From contig JBGVKA010000069.1 in the NCBI GenBank assembly GCA_045129715.1, forward strand, positions 1 through 45,300: a DNA stretch of 45,300 bases, in the 5' to 3' direction. The notes under the pieces are model-generated. The model made no database searches, was not told the DNA's origin, and was given only the letters and a program-made list of their open reading frames with translations. Made by a program: the position numbers and the translations under genes. Positions 5,901 to 28,273 of the stretch are shown here, piece after piece. Numbering within the stretch: the first letter of the stretch is position 1; each line of letters begins with the position of its first letter. The DNA comes from Eubacteriales bacterium. Lineage in GTDB: Bacteria; Bacillota; Clostridia; Oscillospirales; CAG-272.

Positions 5901-6781
5901 CTCTCTATAACGTATATGGGGCTGTAAAGAACGTCTACTGTGTAAGACCACTCGTTACCTGCATAGCGTACCGTGACGGTCTGAGTTACGGCGGTGTCCT
6001 TGTTTGCCTCTGTTATGGAGTCGGGATCGTAGCCGCTTACCATATCATTGGTGATATTGATGGACTTTTTGAAGGTGGAGGGCTTAGCTGCCTCAAGATA
6101 GAGATATCCGCCGGAGAAATTAAGGGTTTTCTCGTGGCTTAAATAATCGTCCTTGTTGGGCTGCTTGAAATCGATTTTTGCGGGGGCATAGAGGGTAACG
6201 GGGAAGCTGCACTCGTAGGTGTTAGCTCCGTTTGTATACTGAATGGTTACGTTTGTAGTACCTGCCTGAGTGTTGTTGAAGCTCTTGATTTTGATCAAGG
6301 AGCTCTTCATATCAACGTAGGTGGTGGTACCGTCGTCCTTAGCTACCTTTACTCTGCCCTTTTCCTTGTTGAAGCTTTCGTAGGTAAAGTACTCGGTATC
6401 AACGTTTTCAACGGTCATTCTTGCGATAACCGCTACGGTAAGAGTAGTGGTCTTACCCTCAAAGGAAACGCTGAGAGTCTGGTTTCCGAGAGTGTACTTG
6501 TCATATCCGGTAACGCTTATGCGAGGATCGTTCAAGGGGACCCTCGTCTTCTCATCGTTCTTGGAGACGGTGAGAGCACCGGTTGAAAAATCGAGATCCT
6601 GACCTTCTACGTAAACGAGTCTCGGCTGGAGTGATTTTTCAATGTAGATCTCGGTGGAGGAGGAGCCGCTGTCGTCTCCTCCGTCACCTTTCTTATTCTT
6701 ACATCCGGTAAAGGACGTAATACAAACCATTACAAGCACTAAAATCGATAATACCGTGAATCTTAATTTTCTGTTATTCAT
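2999..6781 (-). CDS. large surface lipoprotein: three Ig-like beta domains followed by about 970 aa of all-helical repeats; function unknown
   Basis: 1260-aa ORF. Signal peptide with lipobox SFTG|C. Residues about 45-290 form three bacterial Ig-like modules (for example LVYVEGQDLDFSTGALTV...TLSVSFEGKTTTLTVAV). The rest is helix-rich and has no motif I can assign. It lies 51 nt downstream of the LRR gene with no terminator between them. Confidence 0.85.
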   Translation of the reverse strand: MNNRKLRFTVLSILVLVMVCITSFTGCKNKKGDGGDDSGSSSTEIYIEKSLQPRLVYVEGQDLDFSTGALTVSKNDEKTRVPLNDPRISVTGYDKYTLGNQTLSVSFEGKTTTLTVAVIARMTVENVDTEYFTYESFNKEKGRVKVAKDDGTTTYVDMKSSLIKIKSFNNTQAGTTNVTIQYTNGANTYECSFPVTLYAPAKIDFKQPNKDDYLSHEKTLNFSGGYLYLEAAKPSTFKKSINITNDMVSGYDPDSITEANKDTAVTQTVTVRYAGNEWSYTVDVLYSPIYVIESLASKIENVNLEIGENQSIADIKLPAGAGEAAKEAIERYFSLSTTDQSLVDSDLILNFARVAAFYVNINDYVAAVKDLGNAFILSAEGQLTYVGKTYEDVVKAITALNDPKSAYNASAALMRAIKEEFGEESFNENYKISQLTSPHTEETALEIAKRLEHVIAIYDLLKDIPTTWKTDLKTDAAAFASAYGADIVKAVFDISSSEFTGSRYASLYAVIIRWRSDFFDIVYSYYYYAKDGGKDQLTTDLWGKIPAPGLLEDFQNAFNLAYDTAYQLTNTSTGSATGFDLYAYHYYYLKALDLAKQIKASGNELYTTLYNALNLDTLINVYLNAPSSKLLGYYDFLGPVLNNKNVDNVMKAYYDVLDVIATTGTLESNNENRTKVLALFEAMVDLTPTELHWFLSAICYNYHNVAGAVLIFDYKNPSKMIAQIMYGFFLSELPKNTDGTLHNAQASFANLIQAMEIYPTAQYNEAALNDFKNYMRLVNEQFNSLTASEKTAYRALLGNAFDKYNKLYSAILDQSTVTPSEEIKAKFDALYNVLDKFNTLLNDTEKMKLAAAYPTLMGLYSKATVLYNEITEIAKTSSAVANALGAFLYEVSDNDPDHPTVVKFTVDSYFYFIKYVTASSMLSAGHTDYVTSLCDTLIALLPLFEAELNGTVYDGDINDMIAIVRGLDEDKLHAFYSINASIAYFESINRYAADKFSDQTTLDPGSVSDKIDSILAIYKQFNELYAIVTDGSNSETQRTIACTAMIALYNKAKLIYADILTVAETDESIMNAINFKLFSVTVTEDAEPVKGLLDDYMYYMQLSTRSLLSASEELISSAKVENAMALLIKLIPLLTAEANGVEYTGDDILTLLAELRALSADEKYAFYVLQGNLALYAELERHFTKLLENDSIISYLFNAEIYYSLYERDAEDTESLATFKTAMENAIEIYANLSAEDKAIIDDLYYNDLLAKYNALYPAD
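3221..4306 (-). repeat. internal tandem duplication (about 171 aa + about 178 aa) inside the helical region of the 1260-aa lipoprotein
   Basis: Residues 826-996 and 1010-1187 align by eye. MGLYSKATVLYNEITEIAKT matches IALYNKAKLIYADILTVAET, and LIALLPLFEAELNGTVYDGDINDMIAIVRGLDEDKLHAFY matches LIKLIPLLTAEANGVEYTGDDILTLLAELRALSADEKYAFY. Confidence 0.75.
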
Positions 6782-9816: not shown

Positions 9817-12606
9817 TTACTTAGCGGTGTTTGCCATATTCTTCTTTGCCTTTTTATCACGAATGATCTCGTGGATCCACTTCCACTTGAACTTACGAAC
9901 GGCAATGTCAAGAAGGAAGAAGCAAAGGATTATGATAAGGAATACGATGAGAGGATTGATTATCTTGTGCATATACTGAGATGCAGCCTCATAGATCTGG
10001 TAGGGATTGTCGATCAAGGAACCGTGTCCGTTCTCGGCAATGCTTACTATGAGAGCGGCAGCCGCCTCGTCATCGTAGAACATATCGTACTCCTTGGAGT
10101 ACGCAATGGATTTGTAAATTCTCTTTTCGGAAACTACCTGACCTACTACGTTCTTCTTCTGAGCGAGAATTTCGTGAACACCGGGGGTGATGAGGTCGAA
10201 GTAGAACTTGGAGTAATTTTCATCAATGCCTGCGGTAAATTTCTGAACGTTGGACGAAGCTATTCCGTCAACGGAGGGGCTGGTAACGGTGATCTCAACG
10301 TACTCACCGTCCTGAAGCTCGGTGTATACGTTAAGCTGAGTCTTGTAGTTGTCGCCCTCGAAATCTGCGTCGATAGCCTCAACGCGAATGTTTTCCTCGG
10401 GCATAAGACCGTTAACGATATTCGTGAGGATGGCGTTACCCTCGGGAGTGTCAATAAACTGACTCGACCAAGCTCCGCTAAGGTCACAGCCAAACGTACC
10501 TACCTTACCCTTACCGTAGGTCCACTGAGTATAGATGGGGGTGAACTCACCCTTAAGAAGAACCTGAAGATTCTTAGTAAGATCGTTGTTATCACCGTCG
10601 GCGTCCTTAGCCTTCATACCGTAGAAGCCATCAAGGTAGGGCATATCCTCCTGCTTGATGTGCTCGACACCGTTGCCAAGGTTGATCTTGGTGATATCAC
10701 TTGTAGCACCGATCTGGATCTGGAACTCCTCGTGGTTGAAATCGGTGATCTCGGGAGCACCCATATCGTCTCTTACGGCATCCGGAACGGAGTCGTTCTG
10801 CCATACGTTGTGGAAGTTGGTCTCCTTAACGCCAGCAAACTCTACAAGGAGCTGCTTCATAAGAGATTCGGCGGTACCGGTACACTGAATACCGATAATA
10901 GAGGTGGTAATTCCCTCTGCGGCGTTATCAAGGAGGACCTCCTTGGTAAGATCTACGTTTGAGGGATCGGGCTCACCGTCCGTGATAACGATGATGTGCT
11001 TTTTCTCAACGTTTGTCTGTGCCTTAAGAGTTTTACCTGCAGCGGCAAGAGCGGTCGAGAATACGGTTCCGCCTCCGTCCTTACCGATGTTCTGGATCGT
11101 ATTAAGAACCTTAGCTCTTTCGGTTGCGGGAGTAAGCTCGAGAGCCTCCTCGCCGTAATCGTCGAGCTCGTATACACCGATGTAGTCACGCTCGGAAAGA
11201 AGGTCGAGACAAGCTCTTGCACCCTGCAAAGCGTAGTAAAGCTTACTGTGCTCAAAGTCTGCATCGAGGTCTTCGGAGTACATGGATCCCGATTTATCTA
11301 TAAGGATCATTACTGCAACGGGGGGAGTGAAGTTGATAACGTCAACGGGGAGAAGCTTTTTGAGATACTGGGAGGGCTTAAGGTCCTCCTTGGTAAATGC
11401 GTTGGGAGTTTCACCGTCAGTCTCGTTACCGCAAACGGTGAAAAGACCGCCGCCGACTTCACTTACGTAGTCGTAAAGGATCTTTTCAAAGCCCTCGGGC
11501 ATCTGACCGTAGGAGACGTTGCAAAGGATAACCTGGTCGTAAAGACGGATGTTGTCAAGAGACGAGGGAACGTTGTTGGTGTCGTCGATATTGACCGTGG
11601 TTATATCGAAATCAACGCCAAGCATTCTCTCGATCGCCGCACTCTCACCGTCGATGCTCTCGAGAATGAGGATCTTGTTGAACGATTCAACGAGAATGTA
11701 CGAGTGGAAGGTGTTATTAAGTTCTAACGTGTCGTTGTTGCTTGTAAGCTCAAATGACAATGTGTGAAGATTGTTGGGATTGGGCTTGTCGAAGGTAAGA
11801 GGGATCTTAACCGTTTGAATACCTCTTATAAATTCAACGTCCATTTCGCCGCAAAGGGTTCCGTCGTTATAAACCTTGAGCGTTCCTTCGCCGGCATAGG
11901 AGCTCTCAAGAGTGAGCTCTACAGTGAATTCCTCGGCAAACTTTATCTTGGTATCGGGACGGGTCATATTGATGATCTGAACCTCGTCGCCGCGCTTACC
12001 GTCGGTGAAATCGACGGTGTCAACCTTTATGCCCTGAGAAGCGACGGTCTTGATCGCGTTATAAGCGTTACCGTCGGTCTCTATCGCGTCGGACATAAGA
12101 ACGATTCTACCGTTCTTGGGATCGGAGAAGAGCCCTGCCGTATACTTGAGAGCCGCCTCTATATCGGTTGCCGTAGTGTTCGGCATTTCGGACGACATAT
12201 ACTTCGAATACGCGTTCTTCATATCGCTCGTAAGCTTGAGCGAGTACACCTGGTCGTAACCGAAGGTTACTATACCAAGCTTGAACGTGCCGTTTTCGTT
12301 TGCTCTCATAACGCTTTGGATAAAGGAGTCCTTTTCATCTTCTAACTTACTGCCGCTGTACGATGAGTCAACGAGAAGGATTACCTCGTTTTCATCGTTC
12401 GGCAGGTCGTATTCAAAGGTTATTCCCGCAAGAAGGGAAATAGCCAGAGTCATAATGATCAAATGTAGCACCATCGAAACGATACGGTTTCTGGTACCGC
12501 GATACCTTTTGTTCATACGGAAGTACGGAATAAACGTAAGTGCGACCGCAGGTATCAGCAGCAAAAGAAGCCAAGAGTTCGAAAATTTAATACTAAAGTT
12601 TGTCAT
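9817..12606 (-). CDS. BatB-like membrane protein: BatA_N double-TM, vWA, class-I glutamine-amidotransferase-like domain, second vWA, C-terminal TM
   Basis: 929-aa ORF. The N-terminus SWLLLLLIPAVALTFIPYFRMNKRYRG...LHLIIMTLAISLL is BatA_N-like. MIDAS motifs are LLVDSSYSGS and ILIDKSGSM. The block KILILESIDGE...YDQVILCNV...GGGLFTVCG is GATase1-like. The C-terminal TM is PLIVFLIIILCFFLLDIAV, followed by a Lys-rich tail. Confidence 0.85.
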   Translation of the reverse strand: MTNFSIKFSNSWLLLLLIPAVALTFIPYFRMNKRYRGTRNRIVSMVLHLIIMTLAISLLAGITFEYDLPNDENEVILLVDSSYSGSKLEDEKDSFIQSVMRANENGTFKLGIVTFGYDQVYSLKLTSDMKNAYSKYMSSEMPNTTATDIEAALKYTAGLFSDPKNGRIVLMSDAIETDGNAYNAIKTVASQGIKVDTVDFTDGKRGDEVQIINMTRPDTKIKFAEEFTVELTLESSYAGEGTLKVYNDGTLCGEMDVEFIRGIQTVKIPLTFDKPNPNNLHTLSFELTSNNDTLELNNTFHSYILVESFNKILILESIDGESAAIERMLGVDFDITTVNIDDTNNVPSSLDNIRLYDQVILCNVSYGQMPEGFEKILYDYVSEVGGGLFTVCGNETDGETPNAFTKEDLKPSQYLKKLLPVDVINFTPPVAVMILIDKSGSMYSEDLDADFEHSKLYYALQGARACLDLLSERDYIGVYELDDYGEEALELTPATERAKVLNTIQNIGKDGGGTVFSTALAAAGKTLKAQTNVEKKHIIVITDGEPDPSNVDLTKEVLLDNAAEGITTSIIGIQCTGTAESLMKQLLVEFAGVKETNFHNVWQNDSVPDAVRDDMGAPEITDFNHEEFQIQIGATSDITKINLGNGVEHIKQEDMPYLDGFYGMKAKDADGDNNDLTKNLQVLLKGEFTPIYTQWTYGKGKVGTFGCDLSGAWSSQFIDTPEGNAILTNIVNGLMPEENIRVEAIDADFEGDNYKTQLNVYTELQDGEYVEITVTSPSVDGIASSNVQKFTAGIDENYSKFYFDLITPGVHEILAQKKNVVGQVVSEKRIYKSIAYSKEYDMFYDDEAAAALIVSIAENGHGSLIDNPYQIYEAASQYMHKIINPLIVFLIIILCFFLLDIAVRKFKWKWIHEIIRDKKAKKNMANTAK

Positions 12607-12621
12607 CTTTTACTTTCCTAA

Positions 12622-14661
12622 CTAATATTGCTCGCGGGTGTGAAGCCACCATTCAGCGAATAGCAGCGTAACCAACGCTATGGCAAAATATAATAAAATA
12701 TCGGTATTTATAATTTCCTCGTTTTCGGGAACAACCATAAACTGAGGATTTTCAAGAACGTCAACCGTTGCAACGATATTGCTCTCGCTGTCGGGGATCT
12801 TGACGTAGAAGAGCTCGGTAACCGGGTCACCGTTAAGATCGTACTGCGTAACGGAATACATACCGGGAACGGTAACGGTGAGGTTTTCCGGGAAGACGGT
12901 AAGAACCTTGGTGATTCCGTCAGGAGTAACAACGGTAAGATCTTCGCCTCTGGAGTTAAGCTGTACACTTTGATTTACATCATAGATGTAATTCGTTATA
13001 GTCGAGGGCATATAGTACTCGAGAATGTTGTACATCATAAGAGGGAAGTCTATAACGATGGGAAGGTTGGAGTAGTTAAGGCTGAAGGGCATTAAAACTA
13101 CCTTCGATCCCAGCTCGCTTCTATCGGTCGCATAAACCACGGGCTCCATTCCGCAATAAAGAAGGGGAAGATAGCTTGCATCGGGGTTCATGATCTCGGT
13201 ATACTTGGTGATACCTATCTCGTCGGGAGTGAGGTTCTTGATTATGGGGTGATCTTCCTCTTTGGAGAAATAGGTGAGCTCCTTAAGATATTTCTCGGAA
13301 CCGAGCTTGAAGCCGGCGCCGTTGATATCGTAGAGGGGATCGGAAAGTATGGATATACCGTCCTCGGGAAGAATTTCGGGCATAAATCTTTCATAGATAT
13401 AGATGTCGTAGCCCTCGGTGGGGATCACCTGGTCCTTCATATCGGGGATAACTATAAATTCCTTAAACTGAATGTCCCAACGGTACTTGAGCTTTTCACG
13501 AATGATACGGAAAGCGGTGGAGAAGTAGTTGTTGGGGTTGTCACTTACGTAAAGGATGTTGAGGGGGAGCTTTTCTCCGCCAACGAGATTGAAAGTGTCG
13601 TCAATGGAGAAGGCGTCGTCTTCCTCAACTCTTGCGGTAACGGTGCTATAGGAAACGGTCTCGAAGAGGTAAGGACATTCGCTTTCGTATGTCTCGCTGT
13701 ATTCTGCCTCAGTAGAGAAATCGTCCTTGCTGAAGCCGGGAATGTAGAGAGTGGTGATCTCTCCGTCACGAAGATTTTCGGATACTGAGATCTCGAAGCT
13801 CGTGGGAGTAAGACCGTCAATAATACCGTCAAGCTCGTCCTCGTATTCGTCCTCGGTGTTCTTCTTACCTTCTACTATGGCGTAAACGGTAACGTTTCTG
13901 TTCTGACCGTAGCAAACTACGTCTACCTCAAGGGTATATCTGTTGTCGAACTTGGTCATACGTGCGTCAAGCACGGCAACGTTGAAGTCGAGATCACCGT
14001 TAACGTTCTTTACGGTTACGTTACCGGCATCCGTATAATTCGTATCGGTGTAAAGAATAACCTCAACGTCGGGAGTGAATGCAGTAAGCTTTTCTGCCTT
14101 CTTCATAGCTCCCTCAATATCCGCATCGCCGTAAGTGCAAGCTTGATTGTTGGCAGCTGCCTCTTTGAGCTTCGTCAACGCCTCGGTGATATCACCCTTG
14201 GTGAAGGCGGTAGCCTGCTGAACGAGGAAGTCCGCGTTGTCGTGAGCAAGGATTATTGAAACCTCGCTGTCTTCAAGCTTAAGCGTGCTCTCGACCTCCT
14301 CCTCGATCGCAAGGAGAGCTCTGTCAAAACGAGTCTCGTCAAGACCGACCTTTGCCATCATTGATGCGGAAGCATCGATAATAAATACCTTCTTGCTCGT
14401 GGTCTTTTCTTCCTCCTCAGCAAAATAGGGCTGAGCGAGCATAAAGGAGGTGATGATTATTATCAGGATCTGGCAAAGAAGAAGTAAGATGTTTCTGAGC
14501 TTGCTAAGCGGTATCTTATTCTTTTTGTATTTTAAGCTTAATTTCCAAACGAAAGTACTGGAAATGATTTTATTTTGGTAATTGGGCTTTATGATGTAGA
14601 TAATGATCAGCGCGATCAATCCCGTAAGGCCCAAAAAACCAAGGGGTGTCAACCAACTCAT
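12622..14661 (-). CDS. BatA-like membrane protein: BatA_N double-TM plus vWA domain, C-terminal TM
   Basis: 679-aa ORF. N-terminus reads MSWLTPLGFLGLTGLIALIIIYIIKP...LLLLCQILIIIITSFMLAQPYF. MIDAS motif is FIIDASASM. C-terminal TM is ILLYFAIALVTLLFAEWWL. The start overlaps the DUF58 stop by 4 nt. Confidence 0.88.
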   Translation of the reverse strand: MSWLTPLGFLGLTGLIALIIIYIIKPNYQNKIISSTFVWKLSLKYKKNKIPLSKLRNILLLLCQILIIIITSFMLAQPYFAEEEEKTTSKKVFIIDASASMMAKVGLDETRFDRALLAIEEEVESTLKLEDSEVSIILAHDNADFLVQQATAFTKGDITEALTKLKEAAANNQACTYGDADIEGAMKKAEKLTAFTPDVEVILYTDTNYTDAGNVTVKNVNGDLDFNVAVLDARMTKFDNRYTLEVDVVCYGQNRNVTVYAIVEGKKNTEDEYEDELDGIIDGLTPTSFEISVSENLRDGEITTLYIPGFSKDDFSTEAEYSETYESECPYLFETVSYSTVTARVEEDDAFSIDDTFNLVGGEKLPLNILYVSDNPNNYFSTAFRIIREKLKYRWDIQFKEFIVIPDMKDQVIPTEGYDIYIYERFMPEILPEDGISILSDPLYDINGAGFKLGSEKYLKELTYFSKEEDHPIIKNLTPDEIGITKYTEIMNPDASYLPLLYCGMEPVVYATDRSELGSKVVLMPFSLNYSNLPIVIDFPLMMYNILEYYMPSTITNYIYDVNQSVQLNSRGEDLTVVTPDGITKVLTVFPENLTVTVPGMYSVTQYDLNGDPVTELFYVKIPDSESNIVATVDVLENPQFMVVPENEEIINTDILLYFAIALVTLLFAEWWLHTREQY

Positions 14662-17852: not shown

Positions 17853-18171
17853 TTTTTGTTTTCCTTTCCGAACGGGTTTCGCCGTTCATTATTATTCTGC
17901 GATATACAGAACAGCGCTGACGCCTTTGGCATCTCCACGCGGTCAATGTTTTCATTATTGCAATCGAACGTAGTCGTATGGAGCCGATAAACTCTTGCCT
18001 TTCGGCTTCATTCGGCTAATCAAGCAAAAATAATACAAACTGACTTAAGACTTATTGGTGTTCGACCTTGCAAGAACAGTCCCCGAAAAGCAATTTTTTA
18101 TTCTATATTATATTTAATAACAATGTAAATAAAAATTTGCATTTTTGTGAGTTTATACTATTCTTGCTTGG

Positions 18172-18209
18172 TTAGTCGCGGCAAGCTTTGGTAGCTTTGC
18201 CTCGACTAA
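18172..18209 (-). other. second long imperfect hairpin downstream of the giant gene (function unassigned)
   Basis: TTAGTCGCGGCAAGCT (18172-18187) pairs with AGCTTTGCCTCGACTAA (18193-18209) across a 5-nt loop, with one mismatch and one bulge. Confidence 0.3.
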
Positions 18210-18241
18210 GCTGTTGTTGACGTATTAATGAAAACATTCTT

Positions 18242-18273
18242 CTCGGCAGCGAGGCAAATGCCCCGCTGCCGAG
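18242..18273 (-). terminator. stem-loop terminator of the 3304-aa gene
   Basis: CTCGGCAGCG (18242-18251) pairs with CGCTGCCGAG (18264-18273), a 10-bp GC-rich stem 86 nt after the stop. The trailing U-tract on the minus strand is weak (GAAGAAUGUUUU). Confidence 0.55.
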
Positions 18274-18358
18274 TCTTTACTTAAAACTTACGAATTGAAG
18301 ATCAATCTGTAAGTGCGAAATAAAGCTGGGTTTTTGCTTAAAATCCGAAGATCAAGAA

Positions 18359-21300
18359 TTAGCCAACGAGCTTCATTCTGTACTCTGCGAATCTGTCGCC
18401 GTACTCTTTTGCGAGCTTAGCATCCAAGCCGTATTTGGTCAAGAATTCGATCAAAGCGGTCTCTTCCTCTGCGGTGAGAGTCTTGTCAGCCTTAGCCTCG
18501 GAGAGTACGAAGCTCTTCTTGTAATTAAGAAGGTCTTCTTCGATCATCTTCATATCGTCTTCGGTAAGACCGTGTCCTTTAACGAATTCGCCGACGATCT
18601 TGAGATCCTCATCGTTGAGAGCGATCTTCTTTTCGTAGAGCTCTGCGTAGCGCTGCTTGTACTCAAGGAGCTTCTGGGAGTATTCCTTGGAGAGCTCTTC
18701 CTTGAGACCGTAGGTCACTATCATCTCCTTGACGAGTGCCTCTTCTTCAGCGCTGAGAGCCTCTGCATCGCCCTTGCCACCGATCGTGAAGGCGCCCTTG
18801 TAAGTCATCCAGCCGAGCTTGATATCCTCAAGCCCTTCCTTGATGCCATACTCACCGCAGAACTTCTCGAGAGCTTTAAGCTCTGAATCGGTAAGGTTGA
18901 TGAGAACGGGAGTTTCAACTACAAGCGATGCAGCGAGCTGCTGCTTGTATTCGGGCCATCTATTCATAAGCTCCTTCATCATCTGATCGTCGAGGTTGTA
19001 AGTCTTGCAGAAGACTTCGAGATTCTTTCTATCTTCTTCGCTGAGCTCCTTAGAAGGATTGGTCTCGTTGAAGCTGATCTTGTACTCGAACCATGCCTGC
19101 TGGAATGCCTTCTTGGTAGCATCTTCCATCTTGGCTGCCAAGTCATTGAACTTTGCAAGCTCGTCTTCGGTGAAGTACTTGGGATGGCTGGTAAGATTCT
19201 TAGCAAGAGTCATTCTGTACTCGATCCACATCTTCGGAAGCTCGCCTACAAGCTTAGAGCTGATCTTGAAGTTGTTTGCAAACTCGTCAAGAGCGCGGAT
19301 CTCTTCCTTGGTGAGCTCGCCTGCGGGATAAAGGGTTACGAAGCTTGCCTTGTATGCGAGCCATGCTTCCTTAACGCCGTCCATCATACTCTTGTCGATC
19401 ATACCCTCGGCAACGTACATCTCAAGGTTCTTAAGCTCTTCGTCGGTAAGAGTTACCTCTACCTCGCCGCTATTGGGAGTGAAGAAGGTGATCTTAGCCT
19501 CGGTGTTGTTCTGCCAGCCGTTGTCGATTCCGCCAACTCTTTCGATGTAAGCATCGATGTTGGAAACGGTGGAAAGGTAAACCACGGTAGTCGCGGTAAG
19601 ACCTTCAAATGCATAAGGATCGATGAAGTATTCTCTTCCGTTCAAGGTGATCTTGGAAACGGTCATTCCTGCGAATGCGCGGTCGTAAATGTGGTTGACC
19701 TTGCTGCTGAGATTGAGCTCGCCGGTGACAGCGGAGCAGTTAAGGAATGCTTCCTTACCGTACTGATAAGCAAGATCGAAGATGTTGGTGTTTGCAAGCT
19801 TGGAGTCGTTAGCAAACGCTCTGTCATCGACACCTACGTTGAATTCATCTCTCGAGCTAAGGTAAGAGGGTCTCACAAAGTTAAGGGTAGTGAGCTCCGT
19901 GCAGTTTTCGAACGCGCCCTTCGCGATTGCGTTTGCGGAGAGCGTTACGGATTTGAGTTCCGTACAGTTAGCGAATGCGGATTCGGCAATTTCATAGAAG
20001 CCTTCGGGAATTACGATGCTTGTAAGCTTTGTGCCTGCGAACAACGCCTTACCCATTTTGTTCATATTTCCGGTGATCTTACCGAAGGTAACGGATTCAA
20101 GAGCGGAGTTAGCGAATACGCCTTCTACGTTGTAGTTAGCGTTGTCACCAAATACCACGCTCGTTACACCCGTACCTGCGTACATATAAGGAGTGAATTC
20201 CTTAACGCCGGGGAACGCGTAGATCTGAGTGATCTTTGCGCATCCGTCGAAGAGGTGAGAGCCAACGGTCATATCGTCCTTTCTCTCAGCGAGAGTGAAG
20301 GTAGAAAGATTCGTACAGCCTGCAAATGCATAGTCACCAAGCTTGATAACAGATGCGGGAATAGTGATAGTCTCAAGAGCGGAGCATCCGTAGAATGCGC
20401 TGTTCTGGATCTCGGTAACGGACTCGGGAAGAGTAACGTTCTTAAGAGACTTGGAATTTGAGAATGCGTAGCTTGTGATAGTCTTGATACGAGCGTGAAG
20501 AACGATCGTTTCAAGCTTGGAATCAGCAAACGTACCGCTTGCAATATTTACTACGGTATCGGGGATCGTGTAGGATACAGCGGTATTCACGGGAGAGTAG
20601 TAAACTATTGTCAAGCCGTTTTCGGTGATAAGAGCACCGTCAACGTAGGTGAAGCTTGTGTTACCTGCAGCAAGAGTAAGCACGAGGTCGGTGCATCCCA
20701 TGAAGGGGTTGCCCTCGATAGAGGTTACGGTTGCGGGAATGGTAACTGCAGTGATCTTCGAGCAGTTTGCAAATGCGAAGGTACCGATGTGATCAAGTCC
20801 TTCGTTGAGATCGATCGTTACGAGCTCGTAGCAATTTGCGAACGCTTCATTGCCTATTCTAAGCATAGAATCGGGAAGATCGAGAGCGGTGAGCTTCTGG
20901 CACTCGAAGAATGCGGTAGTACCGATCTCTTCAAGAGTTGCGGGAAGGCTAAGGGTGGTAAATGCGGTTTTTGCAAACGCGCTGTCACCGATCTCAACGA
21001 GTCCTGCGGGGAATACTATGCTTGCAAGAGAGGAACACTCTGCGAACATTCCTTCGGGAATTATCTGGATAGAGCTGCCTTCCTCAAATACTACGCTCTT
21101 GAGAGCGGTACAGTATGCGAATGCACCTGAGCCGATTGTACGAAGAGATGCGGGAATGGTTACGGTCTTAAGCTTAGGACAGTTGTAGAATGCCTCTGCG
21201 CCGAGCTCCTCAAGCTGTGCGGGAAGAGTAAGCACTTCGAGATTCTGAAGTCCTGCGAAGAATCCGTCGGGGATCTTAACCATCTCTGCGGGAAGGTTGA

Positions 21301-24300
21301 TCTCCTTAAGATTTGTACAACCCGAGAAGGTGTTGTACTTGCCCTGAGCGTTATAACCAAAGCTCTTAACTGCAGGACCGAAGGTCACAGTCTCGAGAGC
21401 TTCGCAGTTAAGGAATGCGGAGAATCCAACGAAGTGGAGCTGAGCGGCATCCGTACAGGTGAAGGTCTTAAGAGACTTACACTGCTGGAATGCATAGTCG
21501 ATTATCTGCTTAACGCTGTTGGGGATAACGATAGAGGTGATACCGGATGCGTGGAACGCACTGCTTCCGATAACCTCGAGACCTTCGCTAAGCTCAACGG
21601 TCGTAAGAGCCGTACAATTCGAGAAGGTACGTCCTTCGAGCGTCTTAAGGCTCGCGGGAACCTTGAAGTAGGTGAGCTGTTTGCATCCGCCGAGCGCGTA
21701 GGAGCCCATGAATTCTACGGAATCGGGAAGGTTAAGCTCGGAAACGATAGTGTTCGAGAATGCGTAGGTACCGATCGTGGTAAGCTTGCTGTTAGGCGAG
21801 ATAGTGATCGTATGAAGATTCTTACAATCTCTGAACGCATAGTTTCCAATTGAGGTAACGTTATCGGGGATCTCAATGTGAGTGATGTTCGAATACTCGA
21901 ACGCCTTATCTGAGATAGACGTAAGAGCGGCGGGGAGCTTAACGTAGCTGCCCTTGAATCTTGCGAACATGCTTGCCGCGATGACCTGAACGGTATCGGG
22001 GATTATGAACTGATCCTCGTTCCAAGCGGAGGGTACCATGTAGATAGCGGTCTGCTCCTTATCGTAAACGATTCCGTTATAAGAGCTGAGGGTTTCATGG
22101 TTTTCGGGAACGTGGATCTTCTCGATGGTGATACAGCCCTCGATCAAGGAGCCGTTTGCATCAAGCTGAAGTTTTTCGGAAAGAGTGAGCTCAATGATCT
22201 TAGCTCTCTCGAATGCCTTAGCGCCGACAGCCTTAACGGTTGCGGGGATCACGAAGTTGATTCCTTTTTCAACCTGAGAAGCCATGTTGTAGAACGCCTG
22301 CTCTCCGATGGATTCGAGAACGGAGCCCTCTGCAACAGTGAAGCTTGTGAGATGTGAGCATCCGTAGAACGCCATCGCGGAGATCGTTTTAACGCTTGCG
22401 GGAACAACGAAGCTCGTGAGAGCGCCACAGGACTCGAACGCACGGTAACCAATGTCGGTCAAGGTGGAGTTCTTCAAAGCGTCCTCGCTTGCAAATACAA
22501 GCTCGGAAAGTCCGTAAAGTCCGTAGAAGGACTGCTGCTCGATGCTGGAAACCATAGGAAGCTCGATGCGCTTGATAGCACAGCTGTTTCTCATCGCGTT
22601 TCCAACGAATCTAACCGTGGAATCGGGATTGAACTTCATAACGGTTATGGGTGCATAGCCGCTTCCGGAATAGTTATTGAAGCCGTTCAAGAAGCTGTTT
22701 CTGATAGCGGTAAGGTGCGAGGGGAACTGGATAAGAGTAAGGTTGGTGTAGTTCTTGCTGTTTCCTTCTCTTGTTTCGTCGTAAGCGGTGCTGATAACTA
22801 CGGGTGAGGCATTATTTACCGCTGCGGAGTCGAGGTAACCGATTACGAGCTTAGCGGCTCCGTAGTTGGGATCGTCCTTAGCATACTCCTCAAAGATGAT
22901 CTGAGTGAGCTTGGTTCTGAGGAACGAAGTGTAGTCAACTACGGTTACGGTCTTGGGAACGGTTACGGTACCGTTGTTACCAAGGTTCTCCTTGGGAGAG
23001 AAGAGAAGTCTTACGGGATAACGGATTATGTCGCCGGAGTCGGGATCGGTATAAGACTGAAGCTTATAGAGAACGCCGTCAACAACGGTGAACATAGTGT
23101 TATCGGAAGAAACCGTGATGGTTGCAAGATTTGCATTGGTCGAGAAATCAAATTCGTTCGAGCCTTCATACTTAAGCTTGTAGAACACGTTGATCGCGGA
23201 GTAATCGTACTTATCAACCGACTCACCGAACGCCTTAAGCTGTGCGGGAAGGTGGATGGATGTAAGATTTGCGCCGACGAACGCGCCGTTAGCGATGTGA
23301 AGACCGATACCCTCGGAGGAGCCCTCGGTGAAGGTTATCTCGGTAAGGGTGGGAATGCTGAACGAGTAGCCTCTGATGTACTGAACGCTCTTGGGGATGT
23401 TTACGGACGTAAGCTTGGTGCCTGCGAACGCGTAGTCCTCGATAGCGTAAAGACCCTCGTTGAGCTTGATGCTCGAGATAGCGGTTCCGTAGAACGCGTA
23501 TCTGTCAATAGTGTTAAGAATTGCGTTTTCGGGAATAGTTACGGAGGTAAGAGCGGTAAGGTTTGCAAATGCGTACTCACCGATGTAGGTAGCGGTTGCG
23601 GGAACCTCGAAGGAGGTAAGAGCTGTGCCGGCGAAGGTACCGAACTTGGAATCAAGAACAACATCGTCGTTCTTAGCTATATTGTCGTCCCACTGACCGA
23701 TCTGGATATCTGCGGTACGGGGTGCGAAGGTAACGCTTTCAAGCTTTGCGGCATTGTAGAATGCACCGTGACCGATGAAGGTTACGTTCGCGGGGATCTC
23801 AATGGATACAATGTTTGTGTAAGCAAACGCATTGAAGCCGATGAAGGCTACGTTTGCGGGGATGGTGAAGCTTGCAAGAGCCGAGTGGTCGAATGCATAG
23901 CTTCCGATGGTTTCGGTGCTTGCGGGAAGAGTGAAGGAGGTAAGCTTCGAGCATCCTGCGAATGCACGAGCTCCGAGAACGAATTCCTCGTTAGTGCCTA
24001 CGAACTCTACGCTCGTAAGGTTGATACAGTTCTCGAAGGCACCCTTAGCGATCTCTTTAACGCTTGCGCCGATCTTAACGGTAACGACTGCGGGGTTGTT
24101 CTTAAATACGGAGGGACCGATCTTAAGAAGAGCGGAGTCGGTAAGGTCTACTAAGCCGTCAACGATCGTTCTGGTTCTGGGATAGTAGATGATCTCGGTG
24201 CGTCCCTTGGTATAAAGAATACCGTCGTGGGATTCGAGATAGGTGTTGTTCTCATCAACGTTGATGTTCTGAATGTTTTCACATCCGTCGAAGAGCGAGG

Positions 24301-27300
24301 AGTTGAAGGACGTAAGAGAAGAGGGAAGCTCAATGGTCGTAAGGCTTACACAGTTCTTGAATACGTCAGCTCCGAGCGAAAGGTTACCCGTTCCCTCTCC
24401 GAGAGAGATGGTGCTGAGCTTCGAGCAATCCTCGAATGCACCGTCACCGACGGACTCGGTGGTACCGTGGATCTCGAAGTGAGTGAGAGCGGTACAATTC
24501 ATGAACGCCTTGTTTCCGATATTCTTAAGAGTAGCGGTAGCGTCAATGGTGAAGGTTTTAAGAGAAGTACAGAATGCGAAGGAGGATTCAGCGATCTCGA
24601 AGATTTGAGCGTTTTCACCGATCGTTACGGTGGTGAGCTTAGAGCAGTTTGCAAATGCAAATTTGCCGATCTTTATGGTCTGATTCTCAGTTTCGTCGGA
24701 TACGTCGGAGCCCTCGATGGTCAAGGTCTTGAGGTTGGTACAACGGCTGAATGCGTTCTCACCAACGGTGAAGAGGCTTTCGCGAGGAGTCTTTACAATA
24801 ACCTCGGTAAGAGCGGTACAACCGTAGAATGCGTCTGCACCGATGTTCTCAACGTGCTCGCCTATGATAACCTTGGTAACGTAGGGGTTCTGATAGAAGA
24901 GCTTATCGTCGATAGAGGTGATTCCAAGCGGAACCTCGAAGGTACCCTTGAAGGATCTGGGAACGTAAAGAAGCTTAGTTCCGTAAGGATCGCAGATGAG
25001 GTTGTTAACGGAGCTGTAGTGCTCGCTACCGCCCTCGATCTCAATGATCGCAAGGTCCTCGAATACGTCGAATACCTTGATGTTCTTGAGCTCTGCAAGC
25101 TTAGCGGGAAGAACGAGCTTGGTTACGTTGGGAGTATCGGCGAAAGCACCGTCCTCGATGGTAACGTTCGTCTCTCTGCCGAATACGAACTCGATCTCGG
25201 TAAGCTGACGGCAGTTAACGAATGCGTCCTTGCTGACAGAGGTAACACCCTTGGAGATGATAACCTTGGAGATCTTCGCGTTCTGGAACGCGCCGGGGCC
25301 GATTACGTCAACGTTCTCGGATACGGTGTAGGTACCGATCTTAGCTGCGGGGAATGCCTCGAGGTAGGTCTCGCCGGACGTTGCGTGATAGTACATAAGA
25401 GCACCGTCGTGAGTCGAGTAAGGAGTTTCGTAGTTCGGAACTGCCTCGTACATATTGATGGAGAGAAGCTTTGTGCAAAGCTCGAATGCTCCAAGACCTA
25501 CGTACTCAACGGTGTTGGGGAAATCAACGGATACGATGTTGTAGCAAGAATGGAATGCGTTGTCCGAAATTCCGATAATGGGCTTGCCGTTGTACATCGC
25601 GGGGATCACGATAGTGGAAACGTTTCTGTTGTTGATACCGAGTCCCTTGGTTACGTAGTATCCTACGACCTCACCCGTAGTCTCGTTCTTCTGCTCAATG
25701 AAGCTGAGAGCCTCAGCAAAGTAAGGATAGAGAGTGGAGTCTCCGATAACGCCGTAAGGCTCAACGGAATTACCAAGGTCGTCGGTCATCTTGATTCCGC
25801 CGCCGTTAGGAGCGTTGAACCAACCAACGAAGAAGCCCTTGGACTCATCGGTGGATACGGGAATGGGGAGTTTGTAATCCTTGGTGTAAGTAACGTCTAC
25901 CTTGTCGCCGTTGGTTACGTTGGAAACGAAGGAGTTGTCAACGTTAAGAGTTACCTTGTAGCTCTTGGGGATCCAGTTGGTGTAAAGAGTAAGGTCTGCA
26001 GCGAGAACGAGAGTGGTCTCGGTGTATTCCTTACCGTTGTCGTCTGCTCCGAGAGGAGTGTTGTACCAACCGCCGAAGTTGAAGCCGTTAGCGGTCAAGC
26101 CGGTGGGAGGAGTAAGAGTGTCGCCTACTGCGAGATACTCGATAACCTCGCCGCCGTCGGTAGTACGGGTAACGTACTTAACTGCGTACGCGGTAACGGT
26201 GATCGTAGCTGCATCGTTCCAATCGGTAGTAAGGTCGGTGCAGATAACCTCGATAACGTTATCGCCTGCCTTAGTGAGAACAACGCTTGCGAAGTTCTTG
26301 CCGGTAACGGTGATCTCTTCGCCGCCGTTAACTCTTACCTTGAAGTTGCCGTAGCCGATAACGGAGGGCCAGGAAACAACCTTGTCGGAGTATGTAAGAG
26401 TAGTGCTCATAGCGTTGTAGATAGTGGTGAGCGTTGCGGGTGCGGAGCTTTCGCCGTTTGCAGTAGCAACTACGGTAACGGTGTACTCTTCACCTGCGGT
26501 AAGGTTAAGCTCGGTAAGCTTTGCAGCGAGGTCGAGCGTAGCCTCGGTAACGGTGTACTCGGTGCCGTTTACGGTAACGACGTAAGTACCTGCCTCAGAG
26601 GTCCAAGTAAGAACGGTACCGTTCAATGCAAGACCTTGAACCTTAGCGGGAGCGGTCTTGGTAGCGGTAGCGGTCGAAGCCTCGGGGGAGTTGTATCCGT
26701 CTGCAACGGGAGTTACGCTTACGGAAACGGAGCCGGTGTAATCAGCAAGGCTGAACGTAGTACCGGTGGTCTTGAAGGTGTAGGTCTCGGTGCCTACGGT
26801 AAGGGTTACCTTGTAAGCGGAAGCGTTTGCTACTGCGCCCCATACGAACGAATCGGTAGCCGCGTCGTAGGTAACGGTGCCGAGAGAAGCAAGGCTCTGC
26901 TCGTGAACGAGAACAACGGAGGGAACGGAGTTAGCATATCCCTCAGCTGCGGCAACAACGCTGAACTTGATACCGCCAACCTGCATGGTGCAGTTGCTGA
27001 AATCGAAGTAGGTGGAGTTGCCGTTGTCAAGAGCGTCGTGATTGTGGAGCTTGTTGCCGCAATCGATGGTAATGATGTACTTCTCAGCGTTTTCAACTGC
27101 GCCGAATACGAGCTTACCGTCAACGATCTTGAGCTCGGAGACTCTGTTAAGAGCCTTGTTGTTGTAGTATCTTACTGCAACGTCAGAGGTCTTTCCGCCA
27201 CTGCCTACTGCTACGATCTCGAACGAGTAAGCACCCGCTACCTGACCGGCAAAGTTGTAGTTGTAGTTGTAAGTAACGGTAGTGATCTCGTTAAGAACGT

Positions 27301-28273
27301 TGCCGTCTGCATCCTTGAGGGTGATCTTGTAGCTGGTCGCGCCTGCTACGGGAGTCCAGCTCAAGCCGTTTGCGCTTACGTTAGCCTCGGGAGCCGCGAT
27401 CTGTGCATCGTTGGGAGTCCAGAGAGCGAAGAGCGTAGTGTCGGCGGTGAGCTTGGTGTTGTTATATTTGTAGGAAAGCTTCGCGCCGTCCTCAAGCATA
27501 CTGATCCACCAGCCTGCGAAGGTATATCCGTCTCTTGTGGGATTCTCGGGAAGATCGTATACCAAGCCGTTCAAGGTGGTAACGTCAGCGAGGGACGGAG
27601 CTCCGTCGTAACCAAGGTCAAAGCTTACGTTATAAACGGGGCCGTCAACGATTGCGAGCCATTTTGCATACAACGTAACGTTTGCGGTTACGGGAGTAGT
27701 GAATGCGTAGGAAGTTGTGAGTGCGGAATCCGTATACCAGCCGAGGAATGCATATCCTGCCTTAGTGGGATCCTGGGGCTTGGATGCGGTCTTACCGTTA
27801 ACTACCGTGATGGGAGCGACTGCGCTGCCGCCGTCTACCTCGAAGCTTACGGTGTAGTTCACGTTCTTGAGGAACGTCATCGTAGCGTTCTTGTAGGTGA
27901 GCGTCAACTTATCACTTGCGATAGTTGCGGTTGCGGTTCCGTCTGCGGTGTCTGCAAACGTAAGAACCATGTTGCTGCCGTCAACAGTGTAGGTACCGGT
28001 CTTAGTGAATCCGGTTCCGGTGTAGGTGAAGCTTCCGGCGGTCAATACCAGAGTTTCTTCGCCTCCTGCGACGTCGTAATAGTACGTACCCTGCTCGGGA
28101 CCGCCCTGATATGCAGGGGGATTGTTCGTAGTTCCGTTATTGTCGGTGTTGCCACCGTCGTTATCGCCGTTAGTCTTATCTTTGCAAGCCGTTAAGAGCA
28201 CTGCAACGGAAAGAACGAGGCAAAGAACAACGAGCAAGGCGTACAGCCTTTTGTGTTTGAGCTTTAAGTTCAT
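18359..28273 (-). CDS. giant (3304 aa) surface lipoprotein: Flg_new x4, Fn3/Ig-like x about 5, about 2000 aa of BspA-type LRR_5 repeats, eight C-terminal helical repeats
   Basis: Single uninterrupted ORF with RBS AAGGAGG 7 nt upstream. Lipobox LLTA|C. Flg_new motifs include AGYAFLGWYTD..VTLYAKW, DGYTFAGWW...TLFALW and NGFNFGGWYNT...LTLYTNW. An Fn3-like segment reads GLSWTPVAGATSYKITL. The long LRR array fits I...AF..C..L..v.iP.sv..Ig. By eye there is no LPXTG, SLH, CWB2 or C-terminal TM. Confidence 0.92.
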   Translation of the reverse strand: MNLKLKHKRLYALLVVLCLVLSVAVLLTACKDKTNGDNDGGNTDNNGTTNNPPAYQGGPEQGTYYYDVAGGEETLVLTAGSFTYTGTGFTKTGTYTVDGSNMVLTFADTADGTATATIASDKLTLTYKNATMTFLKNVNYTVSFEVDGGSAVAPITVVNGKTASKPQDPTKAGYAFLGWYTDSALTTSYAFTTPVTANVTLYAKWLAIVDGPVYNVSFDLGYDGAPSLADVTTLNGLVYDLPENPTRDGYTFAGWWISMLEDGAKLSYKYNNTKLTADTTLFALWTPNDAQIAAPEANVSANGLSWTPVAGATSYKITLKDADGNVLNEITTVTYNYNYNFAGQVAGAYSFEIVAVGSGGKTSDVAVRYYNNKALNRVSELKIVDGKLVFGAVENAEKYIITIDCGNKLHNHDALDNGNSTYFDFSNCTMQVGGIKFSVVAAAEGYANSVPSVVLVHEQSLASLGTVTYDAATDSFVWGAVANASAYKVTLTVGTETYTFKTTGTTFSLADYTGSVSVSVTPVADGYNSPEASTATATKTAPAKVQGLALNGTVLTWTSEAGTYVVTVNGTEYTVTEATLDLAAKLTELNLTAGEEYTVTVVATANGESSAPATLTTIYNAMSTTLTYSDKVVSWPSVIGYGNFKVRVNGGEEITVTGKNFASVVLTKAGDNVIEVICTDLTTDWNDAATITVTAYAVKYVTRTTDGGEVIEYLAVGDTLTPPTGLTANGFNFGGWYNTPLGADDNGKEYTETTLVLAADLTLYTNWIPKSYKVTLNVDNSFVSNVTNGDKVDVTYTKDYKLPIPVSTDESKGFFVGWFNAPNGGGIKMTDDLGNSVEPYGVIGDSTLYPYFAEALSFIEQKNETTGEVVGYYVTKGLGINNRNVSTIVIPAMYNGKPIIGISDNAFHSCYNIVSVDFPNTVEYVGLGAFELCTKLLSINMYEAVPNYETPYSTHDGALMYYHATSGETYLEAFPAAKIGTYTVSENVDVIGPGAFQNAKISKVIISKGVTSVSKDAFVNCRQLTEIEFVFGRETNVTIEDGAFADTPNVTKLVLPAKLAELKNIKVFDVFEDLAIIEIEGGSEHYSSVNNLICDPYGTKLLYVPRSFKGTFEVPLGITSIDDKLFYQNPYVTKVIIGEHVENIGADAFYGCTALTEVIVKTPRESLFTVGENAFSRCTNLKTLTIEGSDVSDETENQTIKIGKFAFANCSKLTTVTIGENAQIFEIAESSFAFCTSLKTFTIDATATLKNIGNKAFMNCTALTHFEIHGTTESVGDGAFEDCSKLSTISLGEGTGNLSLGADVFKNCVSLTTIELPSSLTSFNSSLFDGCENIQNINVDENNTYLESHDGILYTKGRTEIIYYPRTRTIVDGLVDLTDSALLKIGPSVFKNNPAVVTVKIGASVKEIAKGAFENCINLTSVEFVGTNEEFVLGARAFAGCSKLTSFTLPASTETIGSYAFDHSALASFTIPANVAFIGFNAFAYTNIVSIEIPANVTFIGHGAFYNAAKLESVTFAPRTADIQIGQWDDNIAKNDDVVLDSKFGTFAGTALTSFEVPATATYIGEYAFANLTALTSVTIPENAILNTIDRYAFYGTAISSIKLNEGLYAIEDYAFAGTKLTSVNIPKSVQYIRGYSFSIPTLTEITFTEGSSEGIGLHIANGAFVGANLTSIHLPAQLKAFGESVDKYDYSAINVFYKLKYEGSNEFDFSTNANLATITVSSDNTMFTVVDGVLYKLQSYTDPDSGDIIRYPVRLLFSPKENLGNNGTVTVPKTVTVVDYTSFLRTKLTQIIFEEYAKDDPNYGAAKLVIGYLDSAAVNNASPVVISTAYDETREGNSKNYTNLTLIQFPSHLTAIRNSFLNGFNNYSGSGYAPITVMKFNPDSTVRFVGNAMRNSCAIKRIELPMVSSIEQQSFYGLYGLSELVFASEDALKNSTLTDIGYRAFESCGALTSFVVPASVKTISAMAFYGCSHLTSFTVAEGSVLESIGEQAFYNMASQVEKGINFVIPATVKAVGAKAFERAKIIELTLSEKLQLDANGSLIEGCITIEKIHVPENHETLSSYNGIVYDKEQTAIYMVPSAWNEDQFIIPDTVQVIAASMFARFKGSYVKLPAALTSISDKAFEYSNITHIEIPDNVTSIGNYAFRDCKNLHTITISPNSKLTTIGTYAFSNTIVSELNLPDSVEFMGSYALGGCKQLTYFKVPASLKTLEGRTFSNCTALTTVELSEGLEVIGSSAFHASGITSIVIPNSVKQIIDYAFQQCKSLKTFTCTDAAQLHFVGFSAFLNCEALETVTFGPAVKSFGYNAQGKYNTFSGCTNLKEINLPAEMVKIPDGFFAGLQNLEVLTLPAQLEELGAEAFYNCPKLKTVTIPASLRTIGSGAFAYCTALKSVVFEEGSSIQIIPEGMFAECSSLASIVFPAGLVEIGDSAFAKTAFTTLSLPATLEEIGTTAFFECQKLTALDLPDSMLRIGNEAFANCYELVTIDLNEGLDHIGTFAFANCSKITAVTIPATVTSIEGNPFMGCTDLVLTLAAGNTSFTYVDGALITENGLTIVYYSPVNTAVSYTIPDTVVNIASGTFADSKLETIVLHARIKTITSYAFSNSKSLKNVTLPESVTEIQNSAFYGCSALETITIPASVIKLGDYAFAGCTNLSTFTLAERKDDMTVGSHLFDGCAKITQIYAFPGVKEFTPYMYAGTGVTSVVFGDNANYNVEGVFANSALESVTFGKITGNMNKMGKALFAGTKLTSIVIPEGFYEIAESAFANCTELKSVTLSANAIAKGAFENCTELTTLNFVRPSYLSSRDEFNVGVDDRAFANDSKLANTNIFDLAYQYGKEAFLNCSAVTGELNLSSKVNHIYDRAFAGMTVSKITLNGREYFIDPYAFEGLTATTVVYLSTVSNIDAYIERVGGIDNGWQNNTEAKITFFTPNSGEVEVTLTDEELKNLEMYVAEGMIDKSMMDGVKEAWLAYKASFVTLYPAGELTKEEIRALDEFANNFKISSKLVGELPKMWIEYRMTLAKNLTSHPKYFTEDELAKFNDLAAKMEDATKKAFQQAWFEYKISFNETNPSKELSEEDRKNLEVFCKTYNLDDQMMKELMNRWPEYKQQLAASLVVETPVLINLTDSELKALEKFCGEYGIKEGLEDIKLGWMTYKGAFTIGGKGDAEALSAEEEALVKEMIVTYGLKEELSKEYSQKLLEYKQRYAELYEKKIALNDEDLKIVGEFVKGHGLTEDDMKMIEEDLLNYKKSFVLSEAKADKTLTAEEETALIEFLTKYGLDAKLAKEYGDRFAEYRMKLVG
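18362..19450 (-). repeat. eight tandem 39-50-aa helical repeats, consensus L[ST].EE...L..F...YGL.....KE......EYK..., at the C-terminus of the giant protein
   Basis: The repeat starts are LTDEELKNLEMY, LTKEEIRALDEF, FTEDELAKFNDL, LSEEDRKNLEVF, LTDSELKALEKF, LSAEEEALVKEM, LNDEDLKIVGEF and LTAEEETALIEF. Each ends in an (E/T/N)Y(K/R) motif. Boundaries were checked at 19441-19450 (rc CTT ACC GAC G = LTD). Confidence 0.8.
19576..25696 (-). repeat. BspA-type LRR array of the giant protein (approximate bounds, residues about 860-2900)
   Basis: Protein-level periodicity of roughly 23 aa, for example IG..AF..C..L and TSV.IP..V..IG. The units are divergent at DNA level, and I saw no long identical DNA copies. 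Confidence 0.7.

Follow-up and report, generated by a model that had tools for sequence, protein, structure and literature searches.

Tandem helical modules are a familiar feature of giant bacterial adhesins. In Staphylococcus Ebh, the FIVAR-GA repeats (GA being an albumin-binding module) form three-helix bundles and recur with a 126-residue period. Tandem arrays at a C-terminus are typical of wall-binding modules, most known wall-binding repeats not being all-alpha. Here we analyzed a 45,300-nucleotide stretch of DNA (the window) from an Eubacteriales bacterium of the GTDB lineage CAG-272 (assembly GCA_045129715.1, contig JBGVKA010000069.1, positions 1 to 45,300 of the forward strand), and within it the C-terminal tail of a giant open reading frame (ORF) encoding a BspA-type leucine-rich repeat (LRR) lipoprotein. 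The tail is a new sequence family of this familiar general kind. Like the Ebh FIVAR-GA region it consists of tandem all-alpha modules of tens of residues in a giant surface protein and has a two-module higher-order period; unlike that region, to which it has no sequence relationship, its units are two-helix with a period of about 90 residues and have no fold match in the PDB, and the array is terminal and short (363 residues) instead of forming the protein body. We tentatively read the tail, at a little short of an even chance, as a lineage-specific, exchangeable distal module for binding or oligomerization and not as a wall anchor, a function that we infer.

The giant ORF, its predicted anchor and the units of the tail are listed below, the unit boundaries having been set by cuts at a recurring L-[STN]-x-[ED]-[ED] motif.

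18359 to 28273, minus strand: giant ORF, 3304 residues, 9,915 nucleotides, uninterrupted
28184 to 28273, minus strand: signal peptide with lipobox, residues 1-30 (...VAVLLTAC; LLTAC), a membrane anchor predicted by reading the sequence
19316 to 19450, minus strand: unit 1, residues 2942-2986, A type, LTDEELKNLEMYVAEGMIDKSMMDGVKEAWLAYKASF followed by a Pro loop
19175 to 19315, minus strand: unit 2, residues 2987-3033, B type, ending in the WIEYRMTLAKNLTSHPKY junction, which is kept in orthologues
19046 to 19174, minus strand: unit 3, residues 3034-3076, A type, FTEDEL...AWFEYKISFNETNPSKE
18896 to 19045, minus strand: unit 4, residues 3077-3126, B type, with the unit-specific conserved motif RWPEYK
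18758 to 18895, minus strand: unit 5, residues 3127-3172, A type, with modeled helices at residues 3-16 and 22-35 of the modeled construct
18620 to 18757, minus strand: unit 6, residues 3173-3218, B type, with a long modeled second helix (construct residues 68-91) that reaches unit 7
18479 to 18619, minus strand: unit 7, residues 3219-3265, A type
18362 to 18478, minus strand: unit 8, residues 3266-3304, B type, its end (...EYRMKLVG) abutting the stop codon (18359-18361)

The tail occupies residues 2942-3304 (18362-19450, minus strand), the final 363 codons of the giant ORF, and comprises eight units of 39-50 residues with a mean pairwise identity of 24%. The repeat was examined by a leave-one-out test, in which a profile built from seven units scored the eighth and 500 composition-matched shuffles of the held-out unit served as the control. 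Held-out units scored 10.8-43.1 bits and the shuffle maximum over all eight tests was 14.3 bits; the weakest, unit 3, scored 10.8 bits against a maximum of 7.4 bits for its own shuffles. The repeats thus exceed chance. An earlier sequence-only reading of the window had described eight tandem repeats of about 45 residues at this C-terminus. These results bear it out, both peptides that it quoted being present (in units 6 and 8), and its consensus was close to the one obtained here from 21 units, LTxEExxxLxxFxxxxGxxxxxxxExxxxWxEYK, in which the Tyr is invariant. All relatives shared with unit 8 an ending of Y[KR]xxL plus a few residues, followed by the stop codon.

The units alternate between two types. 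Odd (A) units close with YKxSF and a short Pro-containing loop; in even (B) units the closing sequence is EY[KR]xxLA, with a longer helix. Comparison of unit pairs within the window protein gave 52 for the same parity versus 37 for opposite parity (P = 0.017). When the window units were scored against position-specific profiles from five orthologues, with the orthologous position left out, the non-orthologous profiles gave 19.1 bits for the same parity and 9.5 bits for the opposite (P = 1.5e-4). The array is thus (A-B)x4, with a period of one pair of hairpins, or about 90 residues. The same alternation was identified in the divergent relatives P0014, P0031, P0037 and P0022, and the shortest version found (locus L006) is exactly one A-B pair; the eight-unit form would probably have arisen through duplication of such A/B pairs. 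Helices resembling the unit start (LSEEE, LSAED) at the ends of the neighboring 375-residue and Big_3 proteins were considered as further copies and rejected, with scores of 0 bits or less.

Tandem Repeats Finder detected no DNA-level tandem repeat in the array, which rules out a recent expansion of the DNA. The GC content of the tail is that of the remaining gene, which rules out a foreign origin; the GC skew alone departs from it, in line with a composition rich in E and K. The lack of a DNA tandem repeat and the gene-like GC content together mark the array as ancient and native, the product neither of recent expansion nor of insertion.

Structure prediction was performed with AlphaFold2 (AF2). 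A single-sequence run on all eight units reached a predicted local distance difference test (pLDDT) score of 48, useful for helix positions only, and placed two helices in most units. Units 5-8 were modeled with a 24-row alignment made up of units 5-8 of the window protein, units 5-8 of its relatives, and units 1-4 as parity-preserving rows shifted by four; rows for units 3-6 were dropped because MAFFT returned them to their orthologous positions. This analysis gave a mean pLDDT of 90.4 and a predicted template modeling score of 0.78, with all five models at 86.6 or above. Each modeled unit formed a helix-turn-helix hairpin of two helices, and the conserved hydrophobic positions and the W/F...Y-K motif lay on the second helix of the units. 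The second helix of unit 6 ended within three residues of unit 7, and the A-to-B junctions were loops. According to these models the tail is an autonomously folded all-alpha repeat domain, predicted to be one rigid body and not a set of loose beads. Its helical nature had been proposed from the sequence and is supported by the models; the accompanying comparison with GA/FIVAR-type bundles of two or three helices was not upheld, given two helices per 45-residue unit, A/B pairs of about 90 residues and no match to GA or FIVAR.

Each unit opens with L-[ST]-x-E-E followed by a hydrophobic residue. This is the classical helix N-cap pattern, a capping box with a hydrophobic staple, and the modeled helices begin at unit residue 3, directly after the Ser/Thr. 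The acidic EE/ED pair therefore needs no explanation in terms of a metal ion-dependent adhesion site (MIDAS), a point that bears on the neighboring von Willebrand factor A (vWA) proteins discussed below.

The rigid helical array of the model, and a composition rich in charged residues and Leu that is typical of stable helical repeats, also suit a passive structural element: a helical extension or cap that makes the end of the LRR solenoid more stable or longer, or a means of self-association, with no specific external ligand. Evidence from the relatives of the tail bears on this alternative in both directions. To identify such relatives, the unit profile was searched with HMMER against 1.84 billion representatives (E ≤ 1e-3). 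The search returned 39 representatives, about 25 of them true members, including the window protein itself (P0004). Five others (P0005, P0006, P0007, P0008 and P0029) are long BspA-type proteins with eight units each at the extreme C-terminus, and the remainder include many short metagenomic tail fragments and a divergent A/B subgroup. In nearly all true members the tail stands at the extreme C-terminus of an N-terminally anchored BspA-type LRR giant, and N-terminal anchoring is kept in full-length relatives, by a lipobox in P0007 and by a signal-anchor in P0008 and P0029.

Units were one-to-one orthologous across proteins and carried unit-specific motifs (HPKYFT, AWFEYK, RWPEYK), which points to eight units integrated into one domain and not to beads that can be swapped. 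The unit number is fixed at eight in six long relatives, in keeping with a passive element; the unit-specific motifs, kept at roughly 45-65% overall tail identity, suggest more than generic helix stability. Identity in the tail was 56, 53, 45, 30 and 27%, compared with 60, 46, 54, 40 and 43% in the adjacent LRR body, so that the tail tracks or lags the body.

About 14 of the 39 representatives were rejected as members; they matched profile positions of about 7-27 only. The five of these that were read (P0018, P0020, P0021, P0024 and P0025) are eukaryotic-looking, unrelated proteins with a multi-copy 'WGLD' repeat of about 90-100 residues (roughly ...DEFVxxWGLDxxAxExLxxLDPxxQxRVMxxFxPKDxSRGASxxFMGFVKSV), whose E-values with the unit profile (1e-11 to 1e-7) came solely from a shared '(E)F..xWGLDxxA' hairpin. 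In two small ORFs, P0012 (L083, 22-975) and P0033, five or three units of the tail type directly follow a lipoprotein signal; their N-terminal parts and junctions differ, and their repeats are 99% identical. Each comes from a contig of about 1 kb, and the two may represent either free-standing forms of the module or artifacts of chimeric assembly. The orthologue fragment P0002 is split from its LRR body by nothing but a run of N, a scaffold gap (L001, about 6210-6265), and so represents the same giant architecture with its gene call cut short, not a separate small protein. A word-indexed protein search retrieved three fragments with the tail alone and also three with a 16-row alignment; with P0012 it retrieved P0012 itself and one fragment. 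Pattern scans for the tail gave no hit in GTDB species genomes and none in JGI metagenomes, and exact look-up of the giant protein's sequence returned no record.

The tail was compared with the catalogs of known families. Pfam matches were listed at E ≤ 1, HMMER filters dropping most above about 0.1. On the tail none reached its curated cut-off, leaving only sub-threshold noise, and dockerin, SLH, ChW, CWB2, GW, GA, FIVAR, CW_binding_2, LysM and PG_binding were all absent among the listed matches. GA and FIVAR were also absent among the matches listed at the same threshold for the whole protein and, in a scan of 24 family segments, from the list of the 25 families that recurred most. NCBIfam gave only noise on the tail at E ≤ 10. 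Profile searches of PDB sequences found nothing better than E = 0.15 and retrieved no DnaD/DnaB structure. Foldseek with the AF2 model gave nothing significant against the PDB (best E 1.4, template modeling score at most 0.28) or BFVD (best E 0.73); it is weak on small all-helical queries and a generic likeness to hairpin stacks may escape it, so no new fold is claimed. TPR, Sel1, HEAT and Arm repeats had no Pfam match in the tail or the 24 family segments and no significant fold match in the PDB. A hairpin of the T7SS/WXG type was considered and ruled out by the Sec/lipoprotein signal of the giant protein.

Two families gave recurrent weak matches. DnaB_2 (PF07261, DnaD-like), with a cut-off of 22 bits, was exceeded by P0011 (27.7 bits, profile positions 1-40) and P0009 (23.6 bits, positions 2-36), and it matched weakly in 9 of the 24 family segments; the window tail scored 15.5 bits, below the cut-off. 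The likeness is confined to one hairpin of about 40 residues, L-T/S-x-E-E...L..F....G-L-x-x-E-h-I, which resembles positions 1-40 of the 74 in the model, so that the family segments cover about half of it. DnaD-like domains are single-copy, cytoplasmic and DNA-binding and belong to replication or phage-replication settings, whereas the tail is a secreted tandem array, on a protein with a lipoprotein signal, in a surface-protein gene cluster. DUF6926 (PF21977) was the most recurrent weak match, in 14 of the 24 segments; its highest score, 25.7 bits, fell short of the 27-bit cut-off, as did the 16.3 bits of the window tail. The matched part is the first helix of a unit, which aligns with about positions 9-39 of the 73 in the model. 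DUF6926 is an uncharacterized family too, and a literature search for it found no paper. Both matches would reflect a shared local helix-turn-helix pattern, or possibly a very remote kinship, rather than membership.

The proposal that the repeat type is missing from the catalogs thus agrees with the absence of any cut-off match of the window tail in Pfam or NCBIfam and of any sequence or fold match in the PDB. No characterized repeat family was matched, and the profile reached beyond the window protein to a small new family of about 25 true members with a confident model. Absent from Pfam, NCBIfam and the PDB and combining a confident predicted structure with no detectable solved relative, the tail is a clean candidate for a family entry. 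The finding is a modest one, since the family is narrow and its function inferred.

The position of the tail was considered from the layout of the giant protein. From N- to C-terminus this consists of the lipoprotein signal, Flg_new repeats (Pfam, E = 9.7e-32), an fn3-like region, a BspA-type region of at least 17 LRR_5 stretches (Pfam, E = 3.6e-297) and the helical tail, which comes after the final LRR stretch (...GWQNNTEAKITFFTPNSGEVEVT). LRR_5 repeats and an export signal, the marks of a BspA-type LRR surface protein, were both found; they are features of the host protein and not of the tail. A simple hydropathy scan identified the signal peptide as the sole hydrophobic segment. The giant would be exported by the Sec/lipoprotein route and tethered at its N-terminus, and this tether, together with the lack of any other hydrophobic segment, suggests that the tail is extracellular and membrane-distal, beyond the LRR solenoid.

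The composition and anchoring of the protein also bear on whether the tail holds it to the wall. As a non-covalent anchor to the cell wall or a secondary polymer, it would keep the giant's C-terminus on the envelope in the manner of SLH, CWB2, GW or choline-binding repeats. A C-terminal tandem array with conserved aromatics and Lys (W...YK) in every unit, and with a copy number of 2 to 8 between lineages, would fit this role. We nevertheless regard it as decidedly unlikely. A lipoprotein anchor is present in the giant as it is; with a net charge of -21 and a pI of 4.8 the tail is acidic and so poorly suited to anionic wall polymers; no Pfam match to wall-binding repeats was found; and the modeled all-alpha fold is unlike most known wall-binding repeats. 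The first three points argue in themselves that the tail is not an anchor. The tail is, moreover, missing from most syntenic giants. The anchoring domain suggested by the sequence-only reading finds no support on the same grounds, namely the N-terminal lipoprotein signal, the acidic tail and the collinear giants that end without it.

These giants were identified from the genes around the giant ORF, which lies in a cluster with the following members.

2999 to 28273, minus strand: cluster, from the giant LRR lipoprotein to a Big_3 lipoprotein
downstream of the giant gene, same strand: a 375-residue membrane protein with Flg_new_2, a MoxR AAA_3 ATPase and a DUF58 protein
12622 to 14661, minus strand: BatA-vWA protein, 679 residues, DASAS motif
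9817 to 12606, minus strand: second vWA protein, 929 residues, DKSGS motif
beyond the vWA genes: a 990-residue LRR_5 lipoprotein and a 1260-residue Big_3 lipoprotein

GTDB species genomes were scanned with the MoxR protein, giving a comparison set of 80 loci (L003-L082). All are from uncultured gut Clostridia, labeled Clostridia, Eubacteriales, Christensenellaceae, Candidatus Scatosoma or Candidatus Gallimonas, and their MoxR identity was 72-90% over the matched stretch. The order p375 (the 375-residue protein)-MoxR-DUF58-BatA/vWA-vWA was collinear in 71 of the 80, and the Big_3 lipoprotein was present only sometimes. Wherever the contig extends far enough, MoxR is preceded by a giant ORF, and 57 such ORFs with a readable C-terminus were recovered. 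They are collinear homologues, 28-39% identical, with alignments that span roughly 2,400-3,100 residues in most listed cases; compared with the 72-90% of the neighboring MoxR, a very steep contrast in rate for a single operon, this marks the giant as a fast-evolving, presumably exposed component.

The C-termini of these giants were then compared. A broadened repeat profile found the tail in only two loci: L006, the one case among the 57 readable C-termini, with two units that align to window units 1-2, and L014, with at least one unit in a fragment at the start of a contig. Many other giants end without a tail shortly after a conserved GWTxxQTI...W...W motif, which we read as the solenoid's own cap. 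Five (L004, L009, L011, L012 and L016) end in a Flg_new-type repeat, confirmed by Pfam in L004 and L009, and an unassigned domain of about 115 residues that is rich in Gly, Tyr and Thr and closes with ...YY(I/V)(V/G)V...G...(V/T)T; this domain had no Pfam match in the two examples scanned, L004 and L009. Three more (L005, L019 and L056) end in other unassigned sequence. In the syntenic gene these alternative C-termini stand where the window protein has its tail, and none is helical-repeat-like.

An extracellular location, dispensability in most species that keep the cluster and a place in the most variable part of the protein favor an exchangeable distal module. As such, the tail would be an exchangeable tip on a fast-evolving BspA-type adhesin of gut Clostridia, offering an extra surface for binding proteins or other ligands or for self-association, and in related species its place would be taken by nothing, by Flg_new plus an unassigned domain, by other unassigned sequence or by a two-unit tail. 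Several points weigh against this reading. A 'distal tip' assumes that the protein is extended, and a purely structural role fits the same data. The AF2 alignment mixes in-register orthologues with four-unit-shifted rows, which may inflate confidence in a generic packing between units, and the confident model covers units 5-8 only, that of all eight units from a single sequence standing at pLDDT 48. The passive role introduced above gains from the fact that relatives do without the tail. On the other side, tail-less relatives end at the putative GWTxxQTI...W...W cap, so that the tail is not needed for capping, and at the free end of a tethered protein a spacer has nothing to extend. We consider the passive role rather unlikely and continue to lean towards the exchangeable module. 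The C-terminal end of the giant varies among closely related uncultured gut Clostridia (Christensenellales-like; relatives of Candidatus Scatosoma and Candidatus Gallimonas), the pattern expected of a host- or partner-specific adhesin tip, and a ligand, if found, would bear on how abundant uncultured commensals attach.

The vWA proteins of the cluster had been put forward as possible partners of the tail. On this view the tail would act as a docking ligand of extracytoplasmic MIDAS-vWA domains (12622-14661 and 9817-12606), with acidic residues of the repeats completing the metal coordination. Each vWA protein carries a DxSxS motif and has two transmembrane segments at its N-terminus, a large region in the middle, and at its C-terminus another transmembrane segment followed by a basic tail; MoxR and DUF58 have no transmembrane segment. 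Borrelia BB0173 has the same layout of two transmembrane segments, an ectodomain and a further transmembrane segment, with its vWA domain facing the periplasm (PMC5700661). By this likeness the window's vWA domains probably lie outside the cytoplasmic membrane, where they and the tail could meet, and the giant gene is tightly syntenic with the MoxR-vWA genes. That synteny concerns the giant protein and not its tail, however: of the 80 loci, 71 keep the cluster collinear and only two have the tail, so the tail cannot be the cluster's general ligand. The EE pair, in addition, fits the N-cap at which the modeled helices begin. The topology thus permits docking, which we consider very unlikely on these grounds.

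A bolder combination of these elements would make the tail a species-specific docking end, of an alpha-repeat fold not seen before, by which the extracytoplasmic MIDAS-vWA proteins of the conserved MoxR cluster capture the giant LRR adhesin. This would turn the eight-gene cluster into a new surface-adhesin machine serviced by an ATPase, with other tips used by other species to the same end. We give this proposal scarcely any weight. No paper was found that links a Bat/MoxR-vWA operon with giant BspA-type adhesins.

The stop codon of the giant gene is separated from the next gene by a non-coding gap of about 500 bp (17853-18358). This gap contains one promoter-like site (18129-18100, minus strand) and, on the plus strand alone, a single terminator-like hairpin, each at chance frequency.

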